64,000 nt of DNA from Spirochaetia bacterium (GTDB lineage Bacteria > Spirochaetota > Spirochaetia > DSM-2461), in NCBI GenBank assembly GCA_963666985.2, contig CAXXIA010000002.1, forward strand, positions 1,728,001 through 1,792,000. The letters run 5' to 3'. The notes under the pieces are model-generated. The model ran no database searches and was not told the DNA's origin. It saw only the letters and a program-made list of their open reading frames with translations. Positions within the stretch are counted from its first letter, which is position 1. Each line of letters starts with the position of its first letter. The translations under genes were made by a program, and so were the position numbers. Shown one piece after another: positions 48,952-64,000 of this stretch.

Positions 48952-49073
48952 GATTATTTCCTTATCACGAATAATAGTGGGTCTTTTGGCCCATTTCTTC
49001 CGATTAATTCCTTATTACGAACAAATTGAAGCACTTTGATGAAAGCCGCTTCCGATTAATTCCTTAAAGCGAA
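48952..49073. repeat. Three 20-bp direct repeats GATTAWTTCCTTAWHRCGAA
   Basis: Copies at 48952-48971, 49002-49021 and 49054-49073 (spacing 50 and 52 bp). Confidence 0.8.
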
Positions 49074-49132
49074 TTCGCATTATATCTTTATAGCTGTATG
49101 AAGCTTGATAATCCTTCATTATTAATTTTTTA

Positions 49133-49966
49133 TCACGAATTCGTATCATCCAACGGGGATCTGACTTGCTTCAAGATTTCATCAGTCATATGCGTATACA
49201 TCATTGTTGTTTTCAGGTTTGAATGGCCCAACTGGCTTTGAATAACCCGAACGTCTGTTCCTCGTTCCAATAGATGTGTGGCAAAAGAATGCCTTAATGT
49301 ATGACAGGAAGCTTTTTTTCTTATCCCTACGTGTCCTTTGGCCTTTTCGAAAGCGGCCTGTACTGATCTAATTTGATATCTTCGTCCGCTTCTGGTTGTA
49401 AAAAGCGGGTCCTTTCCGTTTCTTTCTCCGATGATTGAGGATAATTCAGGGATTAATGTATGTGGGAGAACGACATAACGATCCTTTGCTCCCTTTCCAC
49501 GCTTAACATGAATCCGTCCATATTCTAAATCAAGATCACCAATATTAAGAGCAACTAATTCACCGACCCGCAGACCTGATCCGTATAATAGTGCAAGCAT
49601 GAGCCGATGCTTCCTGTTGTTAACAGCGTCCAGTAGTTTTACAACTTCTGTTGGGGTTAAAACGGCCGGTAAGGATCTAGATCGCTTTCTTCGAAGAGAA
49701 AAAACTTCTAGCGGCATCCTTAAGTAATCATGATAAAAGAATTTAAGTGCAGCAAATGCCATTTCACGACTTGCCTCTTTATCTTCAAAAGACTCAAGAA
49801 AATACCGAACTTTTTCTTCTCTCCCTAAATTCCGTCGAGATATTGTAAACTCAAGATAACGGGACAACATTTGTGTATAAGCCTTAATTGTCCGCTCAGA
49901 ATAGCCCCTAATCACAAGTTCTCTTTTATAGTTGTTGATAAGTGATTCCTTGGATATGATCTTCAT
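49133..49966 (-). CDS. Tyrosine recombinase, putative cassette integrase (atypical: no IntI-specific insertion)
   Basis: GLRVGE, GKGAKDR, HTLRHSFATHLL, LGH, TMMYTH; N-terminal RGYSERTIKAY. Confidence 0.92.
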   Translation of the reverse strand: MKIISKESLINNYKRELVIRGYSERTIKAYTQMLSRYLEFTISRRNLGREEKVRYFLESFEDKEASREMAFAALKFFYHDYLRMPLEVFSLRRKRSRSLPAVLTPTEVVKLLDAVNNRKHRLMLALLYGSGLRVGELVALNIGDLDLEYGRIHVKRGKGAKDRYVVLPHTLIPELSSIIGERNGKDPLFTTRSGRRYQIRSVQAAFEKAKGHVGIRKKASCHTLRHSFATHLLERGTDVRVIQSQLGHSNLKTTMMYTHMTDEILKQVRSPLDDTNS

Positions 49967-49968
49967 AT

Positions 49969-50060
49969 GCGTTATAACGCTTTGTTAGCTCATTTTTCTT
50001 GATAAGAGACTAATTAAAAGATGATTAATGTATCGAGTTAGCATCTATGATGAGTTATAA
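49969..50060 (+). other. attI-like site; core GTTATAA at 50054-50060
   Basis: GTTATAAGCCATTTT is the reverse complement of the end of cassette 1 (51201-51215), and no attC precedes it; GAGTTA is repeated at 50035 and 50052. Confidence 0.75.
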
Positions 50061-50268
50061 GCCATTTTTCTGTATAGATTTATATGTAACAAATAAGAAT
50101 AACAAATAGCGCCAGATGGATTATTCGCAAAAGGAGAACGCGCGATAGCTATAAGGCGGTCCTTGAAGTATACTAAGTATACAGAAATTGCTTCTCTTCA
50201 CACTTCATTTGGCATTTACTCTCTTCTGAGTTGAGGAGATTACGATTTTGAACAAAGGAGGAGTGAAA

Positions 50269-51162
50269 ATGAGGATCGGGACGTTCAATGTAGAGAATCT
50301 ATTTGCGAGGTATAGATTTAACAGCAACTTTGATCCGATTAATAGCGATGGATTTTCAATAAATAATCTTGCTTTTAGCATTAACGATGAAACTGCAAAA
50401 CAAATAACCGCAAAGGCAATACGAGAAGTAGATGCTGATATCTTAGCATTACAGGAAGTTGATAATCTAAAAGTTCTTGATCGATTTGTTTCAAGCTATC
50501 TTGCAAAAGAAAAGTATAAGCATCGGATATTGATTGATGCATTTGATCCAAGAAATATCGATGTTGCACTCATTTCTAGATATCCAATTAAGAATGTAAA
50601 AACTTATAGGTCTGAAAGAAATAGATCAAATACTGCGAGTCTTTTCTCAAGAGATTGTCTTGAGGTTGTGATTGATGCTGAAGGAAAAGAATTGACGGTA
50701 TATGTTAATCATTTCAAATCAATGTTAGGTGGTCGTGATAATACTTTTACTAGGAGAAAAGAACAAGTTGAAAAAGTTGCTGAAATTATAAAGGAAGCAT
50801 GGCAGATAAAGAACTACGAAGGCAACTATGCAGTAGTCGGTGATTTTAATGATTATTTAGAAGGCCGGACCTCGCTGACTGATTTGATTACACATCCAGG
50901 ATTGAAGAATGTCAGTGAACGTATTTTAGAATCAGAAAGATGGACTCACTTTTGGGCCGGTGGCAATGAATATAGACAATTAGATTTCATACTACTATCC
51001 CCTCAGTTGGCCGAAATAAATAATAATGCTCCAGACATAATGAGAATGGGGCTTCCTTATCGAGCCGAAAAATATTCTGGAGATCGGTTTGATTTCGTTG
51101 GAGAAAACACTCCAAAGGCGTCTGATCATTGTCCTATTGTCATGGATATAGAATTAGTTTAG
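50269..51162 (+). CDS. Cassette 1: endonuclease/exonuclease/phosphatase family protein
   Basis: TFNVENLF, LQEV, NHFKS, GDFND, LDFIL, SDHCP; SD GGAGG. Confidence 0.9.
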   Translation: MRIGTFNVENLFARYRFNSNFDPINSDGFSINNLAFSINDETAKQITAKAIREVDADILALQEVDNLKVLDRFVSSYLAKEKYKHRILIDAFDPRNIDVALISRYPIKNVKTYRSERNRSNTASLFSRDCLEVVIDAEGKELTVYVNHFKSMLGGRDNTFTRRKEQVEKVAEIIKEAWQIKNYEGNYAVVGDFNDYLEGRTSLTDLITHPGLKNVSERILESERWTHFWAGGNEYRQLDFILLSPQLAEINNNAPDIMRMGLPYRAEKYSGDRFDFVGENTPKASDHCPIVMDIELV

Positions 51163-51208
51163 ATCGTAAAAGGAATTAGGATAGGTAATACTACTCAGAC
51201 AAAATGGC

Positions 51209-51426
51209 TTATAACAGCTGTTGATGCGCTCCGGCCGCTAAAAGTGTTTAGCGGCCTCCGGGGCTTCGCCCAAATTTCGTTTTGGCATGGCGTCTTGCAG
51301 ATGCAGATCCAGAAGTGATGTGATACAGTCAAAGGCGAACATGGTGTTGCTGTAGAAGAGCAAGAGCACATGCCAACCGGCTTTCAGCCGGACACGAAAC
51401 GTTCGCATAACAGCGGGCCGTTAATT
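51209..51426 (+). repeat. attC-like site 1 (218 bp, type A)
   Basis: TTATAAC-AGCTGTTGATGCG...CGCATAACAGCGGGCC-GTTAATT. Confidence 0.9.
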
Positions 51427-51468
51427 GCAATATCGAGGACTCCGTTTTATAGAAAGGAGTTGAATGAC

Positions 51469-52203
51469 GTGAAAAACAAAATCTTGATCGCTTCAATAAT
51501 AGCAGTTCTATGTTTCCCTTTTGTGATCTATCTAACTAGATTTCCTGGACTATACTCTGCTAACTCGGTGGAATGGGGAATCTTCGGAACGTTTATTGGT
51601 GGACTACTATCATCAATTTTCGCTGGTTTGAGTTTTATTGTAGTCTTACTTGTATATTGGCGCTCAAATGAGGATAGAAAGAATCGAGAGTCGCGCGAAA
51701 CAGTTCTTAAACTGCTGGAAGAGCTAAGTAATAGATATAAGAAAATTGTGATTAGAATTGAAGATACTGCTCAGATCGGAGAAATGGTATTTTCCTATTT
51801 TAATAGTAGTGCTTTTCAGCTTTATAAATTGTACCAAGACTATCTTAAAAACAAAGAAAATGAAAACCTTAAGGGACAGGTTAAGGCGCAAGCCTTACAG
51901 ATGGTCTTCTCAATCAATACAATACGCGAGTATCTACGATTTGTTGTTCTTACTTATCGATACATTGTGAATAAGTCAATTGAGAAAGAATTTCTTTCAA
52001 TACTATCAGCAAGACTTACAGAACAAGAGATGATAGCTCTTTCTATTTTGTTGTATGACGAAATTGAAGCTGATGACAATTTGTTTAGCTATTTAAAGAA
52101 TATGAAATACGGACCAATCGAAGGCTATGCTGCAATCGGAAGAAGTCTTACAGATGCCTTAAAGCTGAATTCTCCGGAACTACCATCAAATTTGAGTTTA
52201 TGA
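51469..52203 (+). CDS. Cassette 2: membrane protein resembling putative abortive-infection (putAbiC-like) proteins
   Basis: Two TMs with WGIFGTFIGG; C-terminal ILSARLTEQE; GTG start after AAGGAG. Confidence 0.55.
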   Translation: MKNKILIASIIAVLCFPFVIYLTRFPGLYSANSVEWGIFGTFIGGLLSSIFAGLSFIVVLLVYWRSNEDRKNRESRETVLKLLEELSNRYKKIVIRIEDTAQIGEMVFSYFNSSAFQLYKLYQDYLKNKENENLKGQVKAQALQMVFSINTIREYLRFVVLTYRYIVNKSIEKEFLSILSARLTEQEMIALSILLYDEIEADDNLFSYLKNMKYGPIEGYAAIGRSLTDALKLNSPELPSNLSL

Positions 52204-52268
52204 TTAGGAATTATTGATTTACATGGAGAAGCGAGAATAATTGCTGGTTAGAAATGAAACGATACTGC

Positions 52269-52476
52269 AATTAACAGCTGTTGATGCGCTCCGGCCGCTA
52301 AAAGTGTTTAGCGGCCTCCGGGGCTTCGCCCAAATTTGCCTCTGTCATAGATTTTGCGAATGTCTGGCACTGTGGTAAGATGAGTTGCGGTTAGCGGTTG
52401 AGGTTGTGAAGAATCGCAAAATCTCCGCCAGTCGCTACGCGAACGGCAAACTTCGCATACCAGCGGACCGTTATTT
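52269..52476 (+). repeat. attC-like site 2 (208 bp, type B)
   Basis: AATTAAC-AGCTGTTGATGCG...CGCATACCAGCGGACC-GTTATTT. Confidence 0.9.
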
Positions 52477-52530
52477 GCAAGAATGAATGACGATTTCTCC
52501 TCGCCCATCCATGGGCTCGGTGGTTAGAAG

Positions 52531-53760
52531 ATGTCAAAATATAAGAAACGAGACAAATACCAGCAGCTATATGAGTTTTTAAAAGCAAAAGAAAGCAGAT
52601 CCGAGTCATTCACTGTTGAAGAAATAATAACCGCGACAGGTTATCAAGAAGGATCCGTAAAGGCATATATTCGAAACAAGCTCAATAATGTTTATCTATT
52701 CTTAATAGATGATAGTCACTATCAAGTTTCAGGAATTGCATCAAAGACACCTGATGATTTTGAATCGATTATGTCGCAAAAAAGCGATTTGGTTGTGTCA
52801 GACTCAGAAAGCCTATTTACAAGCCTTAGGGATCGTAGTCTTCAAGCGTTTTATACTGCAATATCTGTATATAACAATCCCTTGCATGAATATAGGATAG
52901 AATCCTTTTGTATTCTTTTATCAAATGCATGGGAACTTTTACTCAAGGCTAGAATTGTTCAACTGGAAGGTGAAGATAAAATATACAAATCAAAAGGGAA
53001 GACAATTTCGTTAACAGAAGCCTATCGTAAAGTCTTTCCACGTTCATCTGATCCTATTCACAAAAACTTAGAAACACTTACCGAGATTCGAGATTCAGCA
53101 GTACATCTACTTATTCCGGATATTCAACATTCTTTATCTCGTATATTTCAAGCTAGCATTTTTAATTTTCTTTCAAAGGTAAGAGAATACAAATATCCAA
53201 ATAAGTACCATAGCGATTTACCAGGTCTCTTATCTTTTGTTACAGATAAACAAGACGTTCCTGAAAATGTAATACGTCTAAAGTATGGAACCTATGCAAG
53301 TGGACTAATAAAAGAATTTATTGAAAAGAATACCTCACGCGAATCCGAAGTTTCCGATATGCGTTATTCAATACCAATCGACTACAAGGTAGTTCTGACA
53401 AAAAGTGAAAAGGAAGGAGATTTATCTATCCGTATAGATAAGGATGGAGAACCCGCCATACTGGTAGAAAAACCCAAGGATGTTAATAAAACGCATCCCT
53501 ATCTTCAGAAAAATGTAATAGAAGCCGTGAATCAAGGTCTCGATGATGTCGGTCGGTCTCAATACCATCTCAACCGATATTCGTTTCGTGGAGCTCTCGA
53601 AGTTGAAAAAGTTAGGAGAACACAATCCAATAAATTCTATCATTTATTAGAAAATCCGGAAGTTCATAAGTACTCACAAGCATTTATAGATCTTCTTCTC
53701 CACAAACTTTCAAACAGTGATAGTTACCTACAGTTGTGTAAAAAAGCTTTGAAAAAATAG
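52531..53760 (+). CDS. Cassette 3: DUF3644-like (HEPN-type) protein
   Basis: AISVYNNP..RIESFCILLSNAWELLLKA; Rx4H motif RDSAVH. Confidence 0.75.
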   Translation: MSKYKKRDKYQQLYEFLKAKESRSESFTVEEIITATGYQEGSVKAYIRNKLNNVYLFLIDDSHYQVSGIASKTPDDFESIMSQKSDLVVSDSESLFTSLRDRSLQAFYTAISVYNNPLHEYRIESFCILLSNAWELLLKARIVQLEGEDKIYKSKGKTISLTEAYRKVFPRSSDPIHKNLETLTEIRDSAVHLLIPDIQHSLSRIFQASIFNFLSKVREYKYPNKYHSDLPGLLSFVTDKQDVPENVIRLKYGTYASGLIKEFIEKNTSRESEVSDMRYSIPIDYKVVLTKSEKEGDLSIRIDKDGEPAILVEKPKDVNKTHPYLQKNVIEAVNQGLDDVGRSQYHLNRYSFRGALEVEKVRRTQSNKFYHLLENPEVHKYSQAFIDLLLHKLSNSDSYLQLCKKALKK

Positions 53761-53821
53761 AAGTGGCCTGAAAGTACATCCTTGTACTTTCAGGGAGACT
53801 TATCCATCTCGTCATTCCTGC

Positions 53822-54039
53822 AAATAACAGCTGTTGATGCGCTTCGAATACATTTGCAGGCAAATGTATTCTCCGGGCCTTCGGCCAAATTTCGTTTTGG
53901 CATGGCATCTTGCAGATGCGTTTTCGAAAGTGATGTGATACAGTCAAAGGAGAACATGGCATTGCGTTAGAAGGGCAAGAGCGCATGCCAACCGGCTTCG
54001 CCGGACACGAAACGTTCGCATAACAGCGGGCCGTTTGGC
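53822..54039 (+). repeat. attC-like site 3 (218 bp, type A, variant first hairpin)
   Basis: AAATAAC-AGCTG...CGCATAACAGCGGGCC-GTTTGGC. Confidence 0.9.
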
Positions 54040-54096
54040 GAAATCTGTTTTAGAAAAATATTTTTTTGCCTCACCTTCCATGGTTCGGCTTTGTTC

Positions 54097-54381
54097 TCAC
54101 CTGTAGGCGCTACTTCGGGGTTCGAGAGAAATAATACTGACAATTCTAACGGCGTCATCGATTACATAGAAAAGTCTATAGTTACCAATTCGATACCGCC
54201 ACGTTTCTGGTTTCCAGTCTTTCAACTTTTTGATGTTTTTTCCGAAATAGGGGTTTTTGCGTAATTGGTCGTAGACCATGCCTGAAATCTTTCTGTATTG
54301 TGATGAACTTCCATTCATTCGTAGCTTTTTTAGATCTTTAAGAAATTGATCCGTTTCAAAAATTTTAAATCGTTCAGACAA
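54097..54381 (-). CDS. Cassette 4: RelE/ParE family toxin
   Basis: F.KDLKKL..NPY..KKLK..WRYRIGNYRLFY..R..AYR. Confidence 0.9.
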   Translation of the reverse strand: MSERFKIFETDQFLKDLKKLRMNGSSSQYRKISGMVYDQLRKNPYFGKNIKKLKDWKPETWRYRIGNYRLFYVIDDAVRIVSIISLEPRSSAYR

Positions 54382-54613
54382 ATCGACCTCTACCGTTCTT
54401 AGCGTCTTTGGTTCCCTGCTTCATTCGTTTTAAAAGGCTTTCATCAGAGAGGATGCTTTCCATTTCGAAATCGTCGGCATATTCAACCTCTTCGATGTAT
54501 CTCATTGTTGCAGTCTCGATAAAATTTGAAATCGAACGATTCTCAGCATCGGCATGGACTTTTAAGGAATCGTAGAGTTCTTCATCAATTCGTAGAGAAA
54601 CAGTTTTGGTCAT
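54374..54613 (-). CDS. Cassette 4: ribbon-helix-helix antitoxin
   Basis: KTVSLRIDEE..NRSISNFI; acidic; overlaps the toxin start. Confidence 0.85.
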   Translation of the reverse strand: MTKTVSLRIDEELYDSLKVHADAENRSISNFIETATMRYIEEVEYADDFEMESILSDESLLKRMKQGTKDAKNGRGRFV

Positions 54614-54627
54614 ATCATTATCCCCTC

Positions 54628-54684
54628 TATGAATACATTGTATTCATATGTGTTTAAATTAGTTCATAGCGTTATTGAAGTCAA
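54628..54684 (-). promoter_or_regulatory. TA promoter (TTGACT-17-TAATTT) and operator palindrome
   Basis: -35 at 54679-54684; perfect IR TATGAATACA-T-TGTATTCATA at 54628-54648. Confidence 0.7.
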
Positions 54685-54755
54685 TAGGGCGATTTTAGAG
54701 GTCTCCCAAGTACATCCTTGTACTTGGAAGAGTGGTAAAACACCAAACAGACTTC

Positions 54756-55027
54756 GCCAAACAGCTGTTGATGCGCGGCGGCCGCTAATGGGATTAGCGG
54801 CCTTGGGCCGAGCGATGGAAAACCAAGAGCTTTTAAATTTCTGTTGAAGGGAAAAATCAAATTGGTTCGGCTCGGCCAAATTTCGCTTTGGCCATGGTTC
54901 TTGCAGATGCGTTTCTAAAAGTGGTGTGATAAGCTGAAGAGCGAACGGGCTTTCTGTTAAAGTGCAAGAACGCATGCCAACCGGCTTCGCCGGACGCGAA
55001 ACTTCGCATACCAGCGGAACGTTTAAC
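54756..55027 (+). repeat. attC-like site 4 (272 bp, type A with expanded second arm)
   Basis: GCCAAAC-AGCTG...CGCATACCAGCGGAAC-GTTTAAC. Confidence 0.88.
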
Positions 55028-55155
55028 GAAAAAATCAGAAGGCCTTTTCCATGCCGCCTTTCTTGGTGCCATGAATAGGAATATTCAATTTCCTAAAAGA
55101 ATTAATGGTAATAATGTATAGTTAGTAATCCTGTAGTGATAACGAAGAGTAGAAA

Positions 55156-55860
55156 ATGGAAAACATAATCAAAATACTCGGTGAGCATCCAACTGCTGTT
55201 ATTGCAGATGCTGCTTTTAAGATTGGAGCAACAGTTCGTCTTCTTCCTTCAAATCTATACTCTCTTAAGCCAGATGCACGATTAATCGGTAAAGTTACAA
55301 CCGTTAAATGCAATAACGATTTGGTCTCTATTCTCGAGGGGCTTATGCGTGCAGAGAGTGGAGATGTTTTACTAATCGACAATAATGGTTTCTCAGGGGC
55401 AGGTTGTATCGGAGATGTCATCGTTTCGGAAGCTGTTCGTAAGAAAATCTCTGGGATTGTTGTCTATGGATCCATTAGAGATAGCCAGCAAATCTCTACG
55501 ATGGAAATTTCTGTGTTCTGTACTGGAAAATGTTCTGTTGGGCCATTGAAGCTACCTGGGCAGCAGTCGAAAAATGGTCTTGTTAACGTAGTCTTGGAAA
55601 TAGAGGGAACTTCTATAAAACCTGGAGATATTCTTATTGGCGATGTTGATGGTGTAATTGTTGTAGAAACCGATCGCCTTGATGAAATTATTAGCAAAGC
55701 AGAAGAAATTGAACATAAAGAAGAGACTTTAATGAAAAGAATCGAGTCAGGAGAAAGTCTTACAGACATATTTGGGGTTAAGAAGTTCTTAGAGAAAAGA
55801 GAAGGGGATCCAGAGTATTTATTCAATTCTCATTTGGCAGAACAGAATGAAACGATTTGA
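55156..55860 (+). CDS. Cassette 5: RraA family/HMG aldolase-like protein
   Basis: T..IADA, GDVLLID, GCIGD, GSIRDS, PGDILIGDVDGVIVV. Confidence 0.88.
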   Translation: MENIIKILGEHPTAVIADAAFKIGATVRLLPSNLYSLKPDARLIGKVTTVKCNNDLVSILEGLMRAESGDVLLIDNNGFSGAGCIGDVIVSEAVRKKISGIVVYGSIRDSQQISTMEISVFCTGKCSVGPLKLPGQQSKNGLVNVVLEIEGTSIKPGDILIGDVDGVIVVETDRLDEIISKAEEIEHKEETLMKRIESGESLTDIFGVKKFLEKREGDPEYLFNSHLAEQNETI

Positions 55861-55931
55861 TTCAGTGAAAGGTGAGCCAATAAGTGATTAGATAGAGGTA
55901 TTTTCTATTTGGCATTTTTAGGGATTTCTTC

Positions 55932-56208
55932 GTTAAACAGCTGTTGATGCGCGTCGGCCGCTAAAGGTGTTTAGCGGCCTTGGGCCGAGCGATGGGTATT
56001 GGTTAAGTTTTATTATTTTTGAAGAAGAAGAGAAAATCAGATTGAATCGGCTCGGCCAAATTTCGCTTTGTCATGGCTCTTGCAGATGCGTTTCCGAAAG
56101 TGATGTGATACCATCAAAGGCGAACAATGAATTGCTGTAGAAGAGCAAGAGCGCATGCCAACCGGCTTCGCCGGCCGCGAAACTTCGCATACCAGCGGGC
56201 CGTTAAAG
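55932..56208 (+). repeat. attC-like site 5 (277 bp, type A with expanded second arm)
   Basis: GTTAAAC-AGCTG...CGCATACCAGCGGGCC-GTTAAAG. Confidence 0.88.
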
Positions 56209-57047
56209 GAAATTCGGACGACGGAATAAAAAAGGTCTCTTTTTTGAGGGTTTTTTTCTGTGGCAGCCTCATTCCCTTCATTTGAACAAGTAACAAAAAC
56301 AGAATCCCTTTGAGTGTTCAGATTTTTTTAACAGGCCTTCCTTCTCTTTGAACGAAACAGGTCGTTTTCATACGGCTTTCTCCTCACCCCCCTCGCCTTT
56401 GAGATCATCTTCAAGAAAGAAACCAAAAGCATCGGAATAAAACTCGCTTCGGGATCAGAAGCACTTAGTGATAAGGCGGTCGGTTCGGGAGAACTTGTGT
56501 CGTGAAGGTTTATGGTTTTTAACGATTATGGGAATCGCTCATGAGAAAATCCTTATCCGTTGATGGCTATCGCTTCGGGAAATGAGGCGCTTCCGGTTTG
56601 ATCGGTTCGCGAGAAAAGGGGTGGTAGCCTGAGAAGAATGAAGGGATGGAGATGAGAAGAATGGAGATTGTTTTCTCCGTAGTTTTGCCTTTGAGAATAA
56701 GGCTGAATGCTTTAAGAGAATACCGGTGTAGAAGGAGAAGACGAACATTCGGATTTACAGAATCCGTCCTGAGAGAAAGAGGTCGGGAAAGGCGAATTGC
56801 ATCGGATGAAGGCCTGAGTAAAGTGATGAGGCGATGAAAGGGAGAATAGGGGTCAGTACGAGAGAATGGATAGAAATTCCGTTAAATGAGTAAAAAGCGG
56901 AAGAGGGAAGTCTGTAAAAGGATGAATGAAGAAAAGATGAGAAGGAGAAGGGCAAGAAGAATCGAAACAAAGGGTCCGGCAAAACGGCGAGGAGGGGTGA
57001 GGAGAAGGAGAGGTCTTTATAGATGCGTCGTCCGAACTTCCTTTAAC
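56202..57047. other. Cassette 6: apparently non-coding cassette
   Basis: Ends are complementary over 21/22 nt; only unconvincing ORFs of 75 aa or less. Confidence 0.7.
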
Positions 57048-57248
57048 AGCTGTTGATGCGCTTCGGCCGCTAAAGGTGTTTAGCGGCCTGCGGGGCTTCG
57101 CCCAAATTTGCCTCTGTCATAGATTTTGCTTAAGTCTGTCGCTATGGTAAGATGAGTTGTAGTTAGCGGTTGATGTTGTGAAGATTCGCAAAATCTCCGC
57201 CAGTCGCTACGCGAACGGCAAACTTCGCATACCAGCGGGCCGTTATGT
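57041..57248 (+). repeat. attC-like site 6 (208 bp, type B)
   Basis: CTTTAAC-AGCTG...CGCATACCAGCGGGCC-GTTATGT. Confidence 0.9.
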
Positions 57249-57298
57249 GCTTTTTCGTTTTTCCAGTTAATAACATTAATTGCCATAAGGAGGGAGAA

Positions 57299-57751
57299 AT
57301 GGGCATCAATTATCAATTAAAAGCAGAAAAAGGCAAAATCGAAGATGAATTAAATTCCGCAATTAACAGGCTTATTTCTGGCTGCGAAAAGCTTGATATG
57401 GCTTTAGCTTTCGAAATCTTCTCAGATTCATCTGAGTTCTTGATGATGGGAACGGATGGAAGCCTTTGTGATTATCAGACTTACTTGAAAAACAATATCG
57501 ACTATTTATCCGGTTGTGAAAGTTTTAAGTTGATAACGTTTGATCGAAAAATACGAATCATAAACAGTGAGGTAGCCATCTTTTCATGGGCTTATGGGGT
57601 TGAGGCAAAATTAAGAACGGGAGATATTGATATTATTGATAATGCAGGAGCTTCTTTTGTCTTCCGAAAAATAGAGAATACATGGAAGGTTGTATATTAT
57701 CATGAGTCATCAGTACCTCCGAAAAGAAACTCTCCACCAAGAGAATCATGA
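57299..57751 (+). CDS. Cassette 7a: NTF2/SnoaL-like protein
   Basis: C-terminal SFVFRK..WKVVYYHES; SD GGAGG before ATG 57299. Confidence 0.75.
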   Translation: MGINYQLKAEKGKIEDELNSAINRLISGCEKLDMALAFEIFSDSSEFLMMGTDGSLCDYQTYLKNNIDYLSGCESFKLITFDRKIRIINSEVAIFSWAYGVEAKLRTGDIDIIDNAGASFVFRKIENTWKVVYYHESSVPPKRNSPPRES

Positions 57752-57845
57752 CGATTGAAATCCAAGTGTAAATAAGGGATTACACAGAACGTCGCGCAAG
57801 TATCGCTTTCTGTTGCTGTTTATAGTTATGTCGGAATCAGAATAT

Positions 57846-58334
57846 ATGGAAAATAAAATAGTAATAGATAAAAAAATCCAGCCGGGCGATTTGGGCTCTA
57901 TAGTGGAATTGCATGGCAAATATTACAGCAAGCATTTTGGCTATAACATAACCTTTGAACCATATGTTGCTTTACCTCTTGCGAAGTTTATACTTCGGGC
58001 CAGTGAGAATGAACAGATTTGGATAGTTCGACAAAACGGAATCGTTCGGGGGAGTATCGCTATTGCGAAGAAGAAAGCAAAAACTGCGCAGTTGAGATGG
58101 TTTATCCTTGATGGAAGTCTCCAAGGAAAAGGCATTGGAAATCAACTAATGAGATTCTCTATTGATTTTGCAAGAGAAAAAGGATTTTACAAGCTGATTC
58201 TCTGGACGGTAAGGGATCTAAAAAGTGCGATTCATCTGTACGAAAAGAATCTTTTTTTGCTTAAGAAAGAAGTTTCCCACAAGATTTGGGGGGTGGAATT
58301 GACGGAACAACTCTATGAATTGAAGTTGAAATAG
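57846..58334 (+). CDS. Cassette 7b: GNAT acetyltransferase
   Basis: AQLRWF..QGKGIG, LWTV..AIHLYEK. Confidence 0.88.
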   Translation: MENKIVIDKKIQPGDLGSIVELHGKYYSKHFGYNITFEPYVALPLAKFILRASENEQIWIVRQNGIVRGSIAIAKKKAKTAQLRWFILDGSLQGKGIGNQLMRFSIDFAREKGFYKLILWTVRDLKSAIHLYEKNLFLLKKEVSHKIWGVELTEQLYELKLK

Positions 58335-58400
58335 GGTTAATTCCGAATACTCTGTTTAAGAAGATGAACTCTCAATAAAGATAGATATGAGGGAAAAAGC

Positions 58401-58609
58401 ACATAACAGCTGTTGATGCGCTCCGGCCGCTAAATAGTGTTTAGCGGCCTTCGGGGCTTCGCCCAAATTTGCCTCTGTCACAGATTTTGCGAATGTCTGG
58501 TGTTGTGGTAAGATGATTTGCAGTTGACGGTTAATGTTGTGAAGAATCGCAAAATCTCTGCCAGTCGCTGCGCGAACGGCAAACTTCGCATACCAGCGGG
58601 CCGTTAAGT
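58401..58609 (+). repeat. attC-like site 7 (209 bp, type B)
   Basis: ACATAAC-AGCTG...CGCATACCAGCGGGCC-GTTAAGT. Confidence 0.9.
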
Positions 58610-58841
58610 GTATTATTGGAGGCATTTTGAAGAAATTATGGATTCTGTTTCTTTTTCCATTTCTTCTGGGATGTGTGACTCGTGCAGATGAAAAGTATAA
58701 AGGAACTATCTACGATCCTGGTATTGAGGAACCCATATCGTTGCATCCCTTTTACTTCTCACATGCACTTGCAGAGGCAATTTGGAATTCCCAGCTTTTG
58801 ATAGACACTGCTAAACTCAAAATGAGGAAGGAGTGTACATC

Positions 58842-59129
58842 ATGGGAAGTCCGCGATATTCGGACGAATTCAAGGCAGAAGCAGTCGGCCAGGTTGTTGA
58901 GCGGGGCTACTCCATCAAGGAAGTCTCTGAGCGTATAGGAGTCTCAACCCATAGCCTCTATAAGTGGCTGAAGGCCGATTCTCGAAATCCAAAAGCACCA
59001 GAATCGGCAAAAGCAAATAAGGAGCTTGAAGTCGAGAATGCCAGGCTGAAAGCAGAGCTGCGGCGGGTGCAGGAAGAGCGAGATATCTTAAAAAAAGCCG
59101 CGGCATACTTCGCGAGTCAGTCCGAGTAA
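58842..59129 (+). CDS. IS3-family transposase OrfA
   Basis: RYSDEFKAEAV..HTH..EERDILKKAAAYFA. Confidence 0.92.
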   Translation: MGSPRYSDEFKAEAVGQVVERGYSIKEVSERIGVSTHSLYKWLKADSRNPKAPESAKANKELEVENARLKAELRRVQEERDILKKAAAYFASQSE

Positions 59130-59167
59130 GATATGCCTTCATCAAAAACTACAGGGCTGAATTCAGA

Positions 59168-59986
59168 GTGAAGACTATGTGCCGGGTTCTCGATGTCAAT
59201 CGAAGCGGATTCTATGCATGGTTGAGAAAACCTCAATCAGAGAGAAAGATTGAAGACATTCGGTTGTTGAAGAAGATTCGCCACTTCTACGAAGAAAGCG
59301 ATCAGGTCTACGGAAGTCCACGAATCCATGAGGATTTGATGGAAGACGGAGAATCCTGCAGCGTCCATCGAGTAGCCAGAATCATGCGAGAGCATGGTAT
59401 CAGGGCGATGGTCGGCTTCAAGATGCGTCGATTCAAGTATGGAAAACCGTCCCAGGCTGCCCCGAACCATCTCCAGCAGGACTTTAATGTAGAAGAACCC
59501 GATACTGCGTGGACAACGGATATTACCTATATTCGAACTCATGAAGGTTGGCTGTATCTCGCAGTTGTCATGGATCTTTATTCCAGGAGAATCATCGGCT
59601 GGTCCATGCAGAACACGCTTCATCGTGATCTGGTTATCCAGGCCTTACTGACAGCTGTTTGGAAGAGACGCCCGAAAAACAAAGTCCTTATCCATTCCGA
59701 TCAGGGCGGCCAATTTGACAGCGGTGACTGGATTAGATTCTGTCGTGACAACGGACTGAAGAGAAGTATGAGCCGTCGTGGAAACTGCTGGGACAATGCA
59801 GCCATGGAATCATTCTTTGGTAGTTTGAAGAAGGAACGGATTCGCCGGAAGACATATCGAACAAGGGATGAAGCACGGTCTGATGTGTTCGATTATATTG
59901 AAGCATTTTACAACCGGAAGCGTCGCCACAAGCATCTTGGCGGGATCTCTCCGGTTGAATTTGAAAAGGGTTCTATTGCAAGCTAG
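59168..59986 (+). CDS. IS3-family transposase OrfB (DDE)
   Basis: YGSPRI, WTTDITYI, HSDQG, DNAAMESFF. Confidence 0.94.
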   Translation: MKTMCRVLDVNRSGFYAWLRKPQSERKIEDIRLLKKIRHFYEESDQVYGSPRIHEDLMEDGESCSVHRVARIMREHGIRAMVGFKMRRFKYGKPSQAAPNHLQQDFNVEEPDTAWTTDITYIRTHEGWLYLAVVMDLYSRRIIGWSMQNTLHRDLVIQALLTAVWKRRPKNKVLIHSDQGGQFDSGDWIRFCRDNGLKRSMSRRGNCWDNAAMESFFGSLKKERIRRKTYRTRDEARSDVFDYIEAFYNRKRRHKHLGGISPVEFEKGSIAS

Positions 59987-60335
59987 AGGTGTCTATAGAA
60001 GTCTGGGAATTCCAATTCATCTTAATTTCAATTTTCCAGATGCGTTTACTACGAAAGATATTGCTGAGTTGTATGGAAGACTCTACTATCACGCGCAGAA
60101 TGTTGAGGGTGTAACTATCCAAATAGATTCATACCCAGAAAAGCGAAGTCTTTTTATTAATATGAAACCAATTGTAATAGAAAACTATAGGCAATTTGGT
60201 AAAAGAGATAAGCTTGAATCACTTGGATACTTCTTTTGGTTCAATGTTGAGCAAGATCGCACACTAAAAGGAAAATATGTACCAGTGAACCACCCCGGCT
60301 TTACCGGAGGCACAATTACTTGAGAGGATTGTGTC

Positions 60336-60656
60336 ATGGGAAAGCAAACAAGGTACCCCAAGGAAGTCCGGGAACAATCTGTCCGGATGGTGTTTGAGAA
60401 GCAGAAGGACAGCGAATCTCAGTGGTCGGCGATTTGTTCAATATCCGCTAAGATCGGCTGTACACCCGAAACACTCCGGAAATGGGTTCGGCAGGCAGAA
60501 ATCGATGAAGGGCAGCGGGATGGTCTAACCAGTGAAGAGCGTAAGCGTCTTAAAGAGCTGGAAAAGGAGAATCGAGAACTTCGTACTGCCAACGAAATTC
60601 TTCGAAAGGCCTCAGCGTATTTTGCCCAGGCGGAGCTCGACCGCCGAAAGAACTGA
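60336..60656 (+). CDS. IS3-family transposase OrfA
   Basis: KIGCTPETLRKWVRQAE..ANEILRKASAYFAQAELDR. Confidence 0.93.
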   Translation: MGKQTRYPKEVREQSVRMVFEKQKDSESQWSAICSISAKIGCTPETLRKWVRQAEIDEGQRDGLTSEERKRLKELEKENRELRTANEILRKASAYFAQAELDRRKN

Positions 60657-61567
60657 TGGTCGGTTTTATCAATGAGAACCGGGAAGAATATGGAGTCGAG
60701 CCTATCTGCAAATCACTGCCGATTGCTCCGTCGACCTATCATCTACAAAAAGCAAGAGAAGCTGATCCTGAACTCGAACCTGATCGAACACGTCGAGACC
60801 GGTTTCTTAAAAATGAGATTCAGGAGATATGGGATGAGAACCGTAGAGTCTACGGCGCCAGGAAAGTCTGGAAGGTTCTTAGAAATGAGAAGCATCTCCA
60901 TGTAGCCAGGTGTACCGTCGAACGTCTTATGCGTTCTATGGGTCTCAGAGGCGTCATTCGGGGCAAGGGAACCAAGACCACCTTCCCGTCACCGAAAGAT
61001 GAAAGACCCGAGGATCTGGTTAACAGAGATTTCACAGCTTCCAAGCCGAATCGGCTTTGGGTTGCGGATTTCACCTACGTTTCCACCTGGCAGGGCTTCG
61101 TCTATGTTGCCTTCATCATTGATGTCTTCTCCCGGATGATCGTCGGTTGGCGAGCTAGCCGGTCGATGAAAACCGACTTTACTCTTGATGCGCTCAATCA
61201 GGCGCTTTGGGCCAGGGAAGTAGTCGACGGTCTGATTCATCACAGTGATCGTGGAAGGCAGTATCTTTCGTTTCGATATTCGGATCGATTGACAGAGGCC
61301 GGTATCGAGCCTTCGGTTGGGAGCAAAGGAGACTCGTACGATAACGCAATGGCTGAGACTATCAACGGTCTCTACAAAGCCGAAGTCATCCACCGGAGGA
61401 GCTCATGGCAGAGAATAGAACAGGTTGAATTGGAAACCCTGGACTGGGTGGACTGGTACAACAACCGCCGAATCATGGAGCCGCTTGGAGATATCCCCCC
61501 GGCGAAGTTTGAATCGATGTATTATGAACAGGAAGAATGTTCGGCAGTAGCTGCCGGACTCAACTAA
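60656..61567 (+). CDS. IS3-family transposase OrfB (DDE)
   Basis: YGARKVW, WVADFTYV, HHSDRG, DNAMAETING. Confidence 0.94.
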   Translation: MVGFINENREEYGVEPICKSLPIAPSTYHLQKAREADPELEPDRTRRDRFLKNEIQEIWDENRRVYGARKVWKVLRNEKHLHVARCTVERLMRSMGLRGVIRGKGTKTTFPSPKDERPEDLVNRDFTASKPNRLWVADFTYVSTWQGFVYVAFIIDVFSRMIVGWRASRSMKTDFTLDALNQALWAREVVDGLIHHSDRGRQYLSFRYSDRLTEAGIEPSVGSKGDSYDNAMAETINGLYKAEVIHRRSSWQRIEQVELETLDWVDWYNNRRIMEPLGDIPPAKFESMYYEQEECSAVAAGLN

Positions 61568-62067
61568 AACAGCCTCCGGGAATCCCGGTGTGGTTCACAG
61601 AGATGTTTGCCCGAACAAATGTGATGACGGCAAATACTTCCTGCTATACGTATAAGTATTTAGAATCAGGTTCACTGTATCGGTATCGGTCTAATGTTGA
61701 TTATACGATTACTGAGTGGAATGACGATATGTTGAATGCTGAGAATTGCATATTTGATGGAATCCCCAATAATAATGAACTTGCTCTTAAGTATATAGCA
61801 ACCGCAATTAAAAGAGCTGAGGAGATACCGGAGTTACAAAGAGGAAGATATCTGTATATTGTTTTGTACGGTAAACTTCTAGAATGTGAGTATAATATTT
61901 TGGTTGGACAATTCGATGAAGCTAGAGAATTACTAGAAGAATCTATTCTTACATTTGAGGAAAATAGTGAAATTATACGCTATAAGGAAGTTATAAAAAA
62001 CTGTATTGAACACGCTGAGATCGTGTTATTGCTAACAGAATTTCTAATGCCATATTATCAATAATAC

Positions 62068-62279
62068 ACTTAACAGCTGTTGATGCGCTCCGGCCGCTAA
62101 AGGTGTTTAGCGGCCTTCGGGGCTCCGCCCAAATTTCGTTTTGGCGATGGCTCTTGCAGATGCGTTTTTAGAAGTTGTGTGATAAGTTGAAGAGCGAACA
62201 GGCTTTCTGCTAAAAGCAAGAGCACATGCCAACCGGCTACGCCGGACACGAAACTTCGCATACCAGCGGGCCGTTAGGT
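62068..62279 (+). repeat. attC-like site 8 (212 bp, type A)
   Basis: ACTTAAC-AGCTG...CGCATACCAGCGGGCC-GTTAGGT. Confidence 0.9.
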
Positions 62280-62319
62280 GATTTGCAAATGAGATACAAT
62301 TAGATCAAAGGAGAGCGCC

Positions 62320-63456
62320 TTGGGCCCTGTAGTACTTCTGGATAAGTCTACCTACCAATGCCTCAGTTCTGATGAACTACTTTGTCTAGAAAGATACTAT
62401 TTCCTCAATTTGCCTCCAATACTCCTTTACGAAATAATTACAGATCTATCGAAAAAGTCTGGAAGAGATTCAGAAGAAGTTACTTCACGGCTTGCTGCAA
62501 AATTCACTCAAATGAGTAGTTACGCTAACGATGAGTATCGGATAGTACTCCGTTTATCACTTCTTGGAAGGCCGGTGCCAATGACACGTCAGGTTCTCAT
62601 TGCCGGTGGAGAGAAAATCAAAGACGAAGAAGGGAAGGTCGGGATTTTTCTAGATGAACCTCCTGAATTTAAGGCATTACGAGAATGGGAGAATAAAAAC
62701 TTTTCAGAGTTTGATAGAATCTTTGCAACAGCATTCAGAAAGTATAAAGATAGCTTCGATTTCGAATTGATTACGAAGAAAGATTCAGACTTCAAAAAAA
62801 TATGGAGCGAAGTCAATTCACTGGAAGATGCCCATGATAGCGCTGTTTTACATATTGATAACAAAGAGAATACAGCTCAGATGCTTGAATGGGCTATGTC
62901 GAGTATCAATCTCTCAAGCTTAGAGAAAAGTGCGGTTCGCAAACTGTGGAGTGTTAAAGGAAAACCGAATCTTTCTGACTTCTCACCTTATGCAAGATTT
63001 TGCATGATTGCGTCATTAACAGCGTTCATAGGAATCAGTAAAGGACTATTAGGCTCTAGGTCTTCAAACATGATAGATCTCGAATACCTTTATTATTTAC
63101 CTTTTTGCTCCATTTTTTCTTCAAATGACAAATTTCAACTACAACTAGCACCATTATTGATTGGAGATGATCAATACATCGTTTCGGGTGATGTTCTCAA
63201 AGATGATTTAGCAAAAATAATCACATATTTCTCAGGATTCACGAAAGAAGATCATGTTGCTTATCGAAAGCATAGAGGCAGCCACCCTCCTGAAATCGCA
63301 GACTCGTTTACTTTGAGTGTATGGGAGACGCTATGCTCGCCAGTAGATCCAGAGGCAGAAGAAAGGTTACAGAACACCCCACATGACGAGATTCTGAAGA
63401 AGATAAAGCCAATACTGGAAGCAATTAAGAAGCAAGAACAGAATCGGGGAAACTAG
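62320..63456 (+). CDS. Cassette 9: hypothetical protein, possible PIN-like nuclease
   Basis: N-terminal VLLDKS; later D..YL.YLPFC.IFSSND; SD AAGGAG, TTG start. Confidence 0.6.
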   Translation: MGPVVLLDKSTYQCLSSDELLCLERYYFLNLPPILLYEIITDLSKKSGRDSEEVTSRLAAKFTQMSSYANDEYRIVLRLSLLGRPVPMTRQVLIAGGEKIKDEEGKVGIFLDEPPEFKALREWENKNFSEFDRIFATAFRKYKDSFDFELITKKDSDFKKIWSEVNSLEDAHDSAVLHIDNKENTAQMLEWAMSSINLSSLEKSAVRKLWSVKGKPNLSDFSPYARFCMIASLTAFIGISKGLLGSRSSNMIDLEYLYYLPFCSIFSSNDKFQLQLAPLLIGDDQYIVSGDVLKDDLAKIITYFSGFTKEDHVAYRKHRGSHPPEIADSFTLSVWETLCSPVDPEAEERLQNTPHDEILKKIKPILEAIKKQEQNRGN

Positions 63457-63473
63457 TTAAATACGAGCAAATC

Positions 63474-63682
63474 ACCTAACAGCTGTTGATGCGCTCCGGC
63501 GTCAACTTGCGTTGCCGCCTCCGGGGCTTCGCCCAAATTTGCCTCTGTCATAGATTTTGCGGAAGGCTGGCGGCTGTGATAGGATGGCTTTCAGTAATCG
63601 GCCGATGTTGTTCTGTCTGGCAAAATCTACACCAGTCGCCTTCGGCGAACGGCAAACTTCGCATAACAGCAGAACGTTTAAT
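63474..63682 (+). repeat. attC-like site 9 (209 bp, type B, variant first hairpin)
   Basis: ACCTAAC-AGCTG...CGCATAACAGCAGAAC-GTTTAAT. Confidence 0.88.
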
Positions 63683-63806
63683 GAAAAAAAACAGAAGGCC
63701 CCTCAACAGTTCGGTATCCTGTTTCGCTAATAGGTTTCATTTAGTAGCTGAGAAATTAAGCAATTATGCAAAAAGATATATTTGTTAAAAAATTGCCGGA
63801 TACTAC

Positions 63807-64000
63807 CTATGCAGATTCTCTTCTCACTCTACGTTTTTCCTTTCTTAGACGTTTTCGAAATTTTCGAATTCTAATTTTTGTGTATTGCTGAAGATTCTCC
63901 CATTCAACGCGAGTTGATATTATCCCTTGTCGCTCGAACCGAAACTTAACTCCTGATAGAATTGAATCAGTTTTAACGAGAAATCCATCCCTTGCATCTT
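63807..64000 (-). CDS. Cassette 10: 3' end of a possible reverse-oriented ORF
   Basis: Open frame from the window edge (..DARDGFLVK..RKRLRKEKRRVRRESA) to TAG at 63807-63809. Confidence 0.4.
   Translation of the reverse strand, partial: DARDGFLVKTDSILSGVKFRFERQGIISTRVEWENLQQYTKIRIRKFRKRLRKEKRRVRRESA

Follow-up and report, generated by a model that had tools for sequence, protein, structure and literature searches.

The systems closest to the one reported here are the sedentary chromosomal integrons, with the attC sites of the Vibrio cholerae repeats as the reference (PMC5371416, PMC5027507, PMC2727003). In the parts of these papers drawn on here, the sites have AAC and GTT cores, the right core being completed by the next cassette; their bottom strand folds into an imperfect hairpin, favoured by G·T pairs and conserved GAA loops (PMC5027507) and ending in a branched structure; and the sites are homogeneous and stand in long arrays whose bottom strand lies on the leading-strand template (PMC5371416). 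Corresponding traits recur in an array that begins in a 64,000-nucleotide stretch of DNA (the window) from a Spirochaetia bacterium (Spirochaetota; Spirochaetia; DSM-2461; GenBank assembly GCA_963666985.2, contig CAXXIA010000002.1, positions 1,728,001 to 1,792,000, forward strand). Judged by its organization, this array works like a sedentary integron, yet it departs from canonical attC sites in length, spacers and extrahelical bases, and from the canonical integrase IntI in the I2 domain. That it is a real, undescribed integron variant is well supported. We further propose, with moderate confidence, a sedentary integron-like array of ~85 cassettes with attC-type sites used as bottom strands, a cognate integrase without I2 and a box in each site that would promote the next cassette. 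A literature search that left most subscription papers and supplements outside its reach turned up no account of arrays lacking I2, of sites of such length or of promoters built into every site.

The nine sites of the window are the start of an array of 85 sites, counted by their left arms, which spans ~157 kb of a 3.1-Mb contig and runs ~144 kb past the window end. They lie on the + strand at 51209-51426 (site 1), 52269-52476 (site 2), 53822-54039 (site 3), 54756-55027 (site 4), 55932-56208 (site 5), 57041-57248 (site 6), 58401-58609 (site 7), 62068-62279 (site 8) and 63474-63682 (site 9). The original prediction, made from the letters of the window, had described them as very long, branched attC-like sites of 208-277 bp, and its measurements hold: both of its outer motifs have nine exact matches, all on the + strand and where expected; the sites measure 218, 208, 218, 272, 277, 208, 209, 212 and 209 bp; the outer stem has one extra G; and the spacers are asymmetric (4 versus 8 nt), as they are in all 83 whole sites of the array. 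When mismatches were allowed, the two motifs were counted 13 and 11 times in the window (shuffle means, 4.16 and 1.03). Both arms are present in 83 of the 85 sites (199-277 bp, median 212), since an insertion splits site 76 and an element that encodes a 405-aa recombinase cuts site 85. In each of the 83, the cassette is followed by an imperfect inverted repeat bounded by AAC and GTT triplets.

Canonical attC sites, by comparison, are given as 57-141 bp long (PMC5371416), with spacers of 5-6 nt in each arm (PMC5027507). Their extrahelical bases stand at position 16, usually a G, with a conserved T 6 bp further; here the one extra base is a C (bottom strand) at position 15 and is missing from many relatives, there is no T bulge, and after 5 bp of stem a junction begins. 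On all three counts the sites fall outside the canonical description, and they also differ from it in cassette ends that pair over a longer stretch and in a promoter-like box in every site, both taken up below. As a chromosomal array with a recombinase gene, an attI-like site and 85 sites, the locus exceeds the >19 homogeneous sites used to define sedentary integrons (PMC4889954), and its recombinase departs from IntI in lacking I2. An Rfam search of 49000-64000 returned no family for the sites, its sole match being an ALIL pseudoknot inside an insertion sequence. Outside the array, three isolated partial or decayed site copies were seen, at C1:803983 (-), C2:2674171 (+) and C2:876711 (-). The genome encodes three FlaA proteins and none of 14 control genomes has FlaA, which makes a spirochaete the most likely host.

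The attC-like identity of the sites is backed by a junction rule, an attI-like site and exact cassette duplicates. At 76 of 83 junctions the four variable bases that follow GTT are complementary to those that precede AAC in the next site, whereas within one and the same site they are complementary in only 5 of 83 (permutation mean 5.25, maximum 15 in 10,000). Circular cassettes inserted by a crossover in GTT would leave such a pattern, and at the level of sequence the junctions establish the cassettes as the units exchanged, with the crossover placed within GTT of the right core. Four pairs of whole cassettes are duplicated at 100% identity (1 and 75, 26 and 65, 31 and 45, 50 and 71). Cassette ends pair over 14 bp, not 7, so that an excised circle would fold more readily than the array form (predicted median R-box pairing 0.97 versus 0.46), from which we infer that reinsertion may be favoured over excision.

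The attI-like primary site (50030-50060, +; crossover G/TT at 50054/50055) has a degenerate L box 4 nt from its R box. It is the sole GTTATAA that runs on into the inverted repeat of cassette 1, and cassette 75 is identical from that base onward. The start of cassette 1 at 50054/50055 marks the attI-like site and lies 88 bp away from where a divergent recombinase gene starts; the same layout is repeated in two related genomes, G015 and G016. Contigs from four sequencing runs fit this position weakly: that of X1 and X2, which may be the source sample, begins at 50054, and the related contig of X3 and X4 departs from the window at 50047. One weak candidate for a Pc platform promoter lies near 49955.

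The divergent gene (49133-49966, - strand) encodes a 277-aa tyrosine recombinase that resembles integron integrases. Its best match in PDB, by sequence and by predicted fold, is VchIntIA (2a3v), its catalytic domain matches PF00589, and it has the full catalytic set (R133, K158, H222, R225, H248 and Y257, invariant across 16 homologues) and a place beside an attI-like site. Unlike IntI, it is ~43 residues shorter where IntI has the I2 insertion: residues 178-201 face 180-246 of 2a3v, and I2 is missing in all 16 aligned homologues. Model NF040815 gave 224.6 bits, over its cut-off of 220, and TIGR02249 gave 220 bits in two pieces, under its cut-off of 265, with model positions 178-239 unmatched. 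We infer that this recombinase is the cognate integrase of the array.

Two findings count against that assignment. The I2 domain is reported, in the part of PMC8138268 used here, to be essential for integron function, and four of five relatives also encode a canonical IntI elsewhere in their genomes. Both would suit a different account, in which a canonical IntI acting in trans or since lost serves or built the array and the short recombinase is a bystander, the sites being a cluster of attC sites lacking an integrase (CALIN) beside an Xer-like gene; CALINs are common (PMC4889954), and completeness of the assembly stands at 93%. Within this assembly seven tyrosine recombinases were found, none of which passes the IntI cut-off, and the own genome (G000) and G015 both have no IntI above it. 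The gene stands 88 bp from the attI-like site in an integron layout repeated in G015 and G016, and the first array position holds a 100% identical copy of cassette 75. No bulge-type site occurs in the 20-40 kb fetched around each of four canonical IntI genes, and three candidate sites near such genes have, by eye, 5/5 spacers. Given these points, we consider a canonical IntI behind the array distinctly improbable.

Which molecule is under selection can be read from the folds. Two stem positions are G·T on the bottom strand in all 57 aligned sites; on the top strand, position 11 of the cassette-end repeat is A·C in 46 of 76 cases, Watson-Crick in 30 and G·T in none. R-box pairing is better on the bottom strand in 82 of 83 sites (medians 0.46 versus 0.02), and computed bottom-strand folding energy is lower in 63 of 83. 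GNA loops, which form mini-hairpins that are stable in DNA, appear on the bottom strand (TNC on the top) in 64 of 66 short copies of hairpin 2 and 65 of 83 copies of hairpin 4. Bottom-strand folding z-scores for the nine window sites range from -3.5 to -5.8 (40 shuffles each), and GC skew places the bottom strand as the leading-strand template. Together, the wobbles, R-box pairing, loops, z-scores and skew point to bottom-strand DNA as the selected fold, and argue strongly that the substrate would be the bottom strand folded as single-stranded DNA.

The original prediction had proposed selection on a multiway junction in single-stranded DNA or RNA; a folded single strand, namely the bottom DNA strand, is what stands of this. 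Selection on an RNA structure transcribed across the sites, such as a leader, terminator or small RNA, would have in its favour that the sites are transcribed if upstream cassettes read through and that the covarying helices form in RNA too. It is nevertheless very improbable: the conserved non-standard pairs are A·C on the sense strand and G·T on the antisense only, the sense strand of site 2, the one site folded as RNA, has a weak z-score of -1.6 (bottom strand as DNA, -3.9), no Rfam family matched, and a transcript from the box would miss the 5' half of the structure.

In the predicted fold, the outer stem leads into a four-way junction (outer stem, hairpin 1, hairpin 2 and stem 3), and stem 3 into a nested three-way junction with arm 3 and hairpin 4. 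The branching anticipated from the window is therefore present, with a fourth hairpin and a connecting stem that had been overlooked, giving two nested junctions. Structural covariation was likewise borne out. In an alignment of 57 sites, which omits from the 83 those with a long hairpin 2 (17), near-duplicates (7) and odd sites (2), 13 of 43 named pairs of the inner helices change on both sides, with a covariation score, kinship of the sites ignored, of 0.230 against 0.078 for shuffles and at most 0.047 for slid-partner controls. Much of this stems from the split between A and B arms, so that few events are involved, and the 83 sites share ancestry and hence are not independent. The outer stem has no covariation in the 57 aligned sites; it covaries in a few other sites and across relatives.

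The inner modules vary as had been claimed for arm types (A in sites 1, 3, 4, 5 and 8; B in sites 2, 6, 7 and 9) and for the hairpin-1 variants of sites 3 and 9. Hairpin 2 is indeed expanded in sites 4 and 5, but its variation is not confined to them, since sites 3 and 8 vary too. Across the array, 36 different hairpin-1 sequences occur, almost every one of them paired along its full length; they group into several families, which are found in combination with different arm types. In the 17 sites with a long hairpin 2, the AT-rich loop of that hairpin (54815-54870 and 55990-56050 in the window) ends in a run rich in purines, with TTG, ATG or CTG 7-8 nt further on; by eye this resembles a ribosome binding site and start codon, with a frame beyond it that is unconserved. 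No invariant -10 was found in this loop on either strand in the 17 sites.

Related arrays help to separate the constant from the variable parts of the sites. Recombinase homologues (E <= 1e-40) occur in 9 of the 38 genomes of the family, and homologues without I2 head related arrays in G015 and G016. The search of spirochaete genomes that the original prediction had called for used a sequence pattern rather than a covariance model, since site lengths vary threefold; the right-arm pattern matched 10 of 38 family genomes and 9 of 401 phylum genomes, the own genome included in each count. The 51 related sites (80-271 bp), which come from 15 genomes and a metagenome contig, all have the 4-nt bulge; the extra base is present in some and absent in others. 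The pattern favoured this 4-nt-bulge geometry, and a scan that did not presume it returned the 4-nt offset again for the G015, G016 and G021 arrays. Within the family, related sites that share this outer geometry can measure as little as 80-92 bp, and 60-69-bp simple hairpins occur in other phyla. There, 8 of 61 loci classed as I2-less hold at least two sites, and 33 of 40 calls gave offsets of 2-4 nt; at canonical IntI loci, 1 of 12 has sites, with an offset of 1 nt in 5 of 8 calls. This cross-phylum scan is insensitive (it recovers two of the nine window sites) and misparses some recombinase classes. A search for related loci with a single protein as query gave no match, and a 16-base pattern run on metagenome contigs was set aside as returning mostly chance matches, with a whole site in 1 of 80 loci fetched with flanks. 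Relatives' sites of 266-271 bp (L135:4807-5072 and the 271-bp site of L209) have long arms unrelated to those of the window, so arms grew more than once. In G021, a 399-bp cassette is repeated many times in tandem upstream of a canonical IntI gene (L218:8962-16342).

The short relatives weigh against the other half of the proposal on selection, that the junction is itself the signal, with an I2-less enzyme or a host factor binding the branched structure. In its favour, every one of the 83 sites and most relatives in the family keep hairpins 1 and 2 and the connecting stem, where the changes are compensatory. The arms vary freely in sequence and length and are reshuffled, arrays beside I2-less recombinases have simple hairpins of 60-69 bp, and removing the large terminal structure of a Vibrio site had little effect, as given in part of PMC2727003. 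We therefore regard junction recognition as improbable. Because relatives pair the same recombinase type with sites of 89-271 bp that share the 4-nt bulge, the multiway junction is probably a packaging of cargo rather than a recognition signal.

The cargo would be a promoter. Extended -10 promoters of the sigma-70 type have the consensus TG-n-TAnnnT, and TGnTAnnnT occurs in all 83 long arms, always forward (+) and facing the next cassette (reverse, 0 of 83; shuffled arms, mean 6.8 and maximum 15). In the window the boxes lie at 51321-51329, 52373-52381, 53936-53944, 54927-54935, 56106-56114, 57145-57153, 58506-58514, 62180-62188 and 63577-63585, for sites 1 to 9 in order. Among 71 distinct boxes the T, G, T, A and T are invariant and the three inner bases hold 0.33-0.34 bits; the two bases ahead are T in 68 of 71 and a purine in all 71, and a pyrimidine-purine start step follows 7-8 nt downstream in 59. 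The box is kept in arms that are otherwise unalignable (types A, B and C and three odd sites) and is mostly unpaired in the fold (0.27 versus 0.92 for the L stem). In relatives it is found in 16 of 27 short sites and, with strong -10 hexamers counted, in 20 of 24 long sites; these relatives often carry TTGACA 18-19 nt before TATAAT, TATACT or TACAAT, or TCGNCA 17 nt upstream. Promoter insertion as the explanation for long sites was rejected, the box being present in the short sites as well, which makes it a family trait and not the cause of length.

Several observations weigh against a promoter. A strict -35/-10 scan called none of the nine window boxes, and the -35 is poor, type A arms matching TTGACA at only 2-3 of 6 positions. 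Before ordinary genes the box is modestly enriched (145 sense versus 100 antisense in 1268 upstream regions; genome-wide control counts 120/108, 85/72, 68/82 and 92/101), and those 1268 regions have no start-step peak. Of the 27 short related sites, 16 have the box within a stem strand, so that structural constraint by itself could account for its conservation, and in the 145-bp relatives it sits at a near-palindromic apex. No consistent box stands beside the I2-less recombinases of other phyla (8 forward and 4 reverse, and 8 and 6, in 31 sites); a Bacteroidota promoter consensus was matched by 3 of 3 sites in one Flavobacterium locus and by 8 of 31 overall. These points, with a -35 that is poor in type C arms too, are what would be expected if the sites and the I2-less integrase were as described and TGnTAnnnT were either bound by some other protein or left over from the hairpin apex out of which arm 3 grew. 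We think this unlikely, though less so than the alternatives already weighed: TRTG followed by T-A-n-n-n-T with free inner bases and a start step at fixed distance is the sigma-70 extended -10 pattern, and the box survives in unalignable arms and remains mostly unpaired. That the box is a working promoter seems to us fairly likely.

Recombination and transcription are both predicted here from sequence and computed folds. In the integron-like reading that we prefer, circular cassettes would be inserted and exchanged by crossover in GTT of the right core. The bottom-strand outer stem would supply, in order, the R box, a G·T wobble, a 4-nt bulge and the L box, while the interior, made up of hairpins 1, 2 and 4 with the long arm 3, would fold away and let the outer stem form. 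With the bulge looped out, the two binding sites of the recombinase would be separated by 4 nt, giving a 6-bp overlap, and the attI-like site has the same spacing; spacers of tyrosine recombinases are 6-8 bp (PMC4792948, in part). In the same source, I2 and the extrahelical bases are held to let integrases recombine single-stranded sites without a second strand exchange. Given the equal 4-nt spacing in the attI-like site, the bulge may mark the strand, as extrahelical bases and I2 do canonically. When double-stranded, the long arm would act as a sigma-70 promoter of the extended -10 type, driving transcription of the next cassette, and distal cassettes therefore need not be silent. The folded arms would tuck away a promoter, and each cassette would be transcribed from the site of its upstream neighbour.

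The cassettes of the window are mixed in content, and all but one are assigned to the + strand. Cassette 1 (50054-51215) carries a gene of the endonuclease/exonuclease/phosphatase family (PF19580), and its copy at array position 75 is identical over 1161 bp. Cassettes 2 (51420-52275) and 9 (62273-63480) hold ORFs without a Pfam match, the latter of 378 aa. Cassette 3 (52470-53828) encodes a DUF3644 protein that resembles the PADLOC candidate anti-phage defence system PDC-S19 (52531-53760, E 5.5e-68). Cassette 4 (54033-54762, -) contains a reverse-oriented toxin-antitoxin pair, a ribbon-helix-helix protein with a ParE/RelE family member; cassette 5 (55021-55938) has an RraA/aldolase-family gene, and cassette 7 (57242-58407) a SnoaL-like gene and a GNAT acetyltransferase gene. 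Cassette 6 (56202-57047) is 845 bp long with no conserved long ORF; it begins pyrimidine-rich, ends purine-rich, has a 22-bp terminal inverted repeat and has seven related copies in the array. The gene of cassette 8 (58603-62074) is broken by two insertion sequences, one of them with an ordinary ALIL pseudoknot (60614-60730) at its frameshift.

Other repeated elements lie within the array. One insertion sequence family (~1345 bp; 397-aa transposase-like ORF, reverse strand; first copy L144:6273-7617) is found in cassettes 14, 23, 27, 36, 43, 48, 54, 57 and 85, in all nine 25-27 bp after G/TT and in unrelated targets, as if the attC site served as the reference from which it measures where to insert. 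Small hairpins centred on C(A/T)TCCnTG number 10 on the + strand of the array and 0 on the - strand (~1.5 expected from the remainder of the genome); copies stand at 53777 and 54713 in the window and eight more beyond it, and 7 of the 10 lie 42-54 bp before the next attC. A gene-less 243-bp cassette is present eight times (cassettes 13, 16, 30, 32, 62, 69, 70 and 76; 93-99% identical), and the seven whole copies end in a 269-270-bp site type with its own arm variant, making them candidate promoter cassettes.

Two further groups of described systems bear comparison. The chromosomal integrons of Treponema share a spirochaete host and several site-length classes per array (PMC3607928); their sites measure 63-132 bp and their integrase is co-oriented with the cassettes (PMC11014356), whereas the recombinase here is divergent and lacks I2. 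Promoters inside arrays have been described, in the parts of these papers used, at the junction of cassettes 20 and 21 of Vibrio sp. DAT722 (PMC2945992) and in gene-less promoter cassettes (PMC11014356). Like the promoter predicted here, they are of sigma-70 type and drive the downstream cassette independently of the platform promoter; they are single junction hybrids or special cassettes, whereas the box here is contained entirely in the site and has the same position in each of the 83. Tools that require an IntI-specific profile (PMC4889954, PMC9668308) would not call a complete integron at this locus, so that such arrays are probably undercounted.

We tentatively suggest, at somewhat less than even confidence, that the array represents a second integron class, with an I2-less integrase, single-stranded DNA sites marked by a G·T wobble and a 3-4-nt bulge by the R box, an Xer-like 6-bp overlap and, in this spirochaete lineage, a promoter in each site that would express the 85 cassettes from one end of the array to the other. 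In large arrays, the distal cassettes are taken to be silent for the most part. With a promoter in every site, such a storage array would become an expressed library, in which cassette order would still matter because each cassette would be driven by the site of its upstream neighbour. An apparently active array without I2 and extrahelical bases would show another route to integron function and would bear on the origin of integrons; if this is true, these arrays would represent an intermediate, still living, that links Xer recombinases to IntI.

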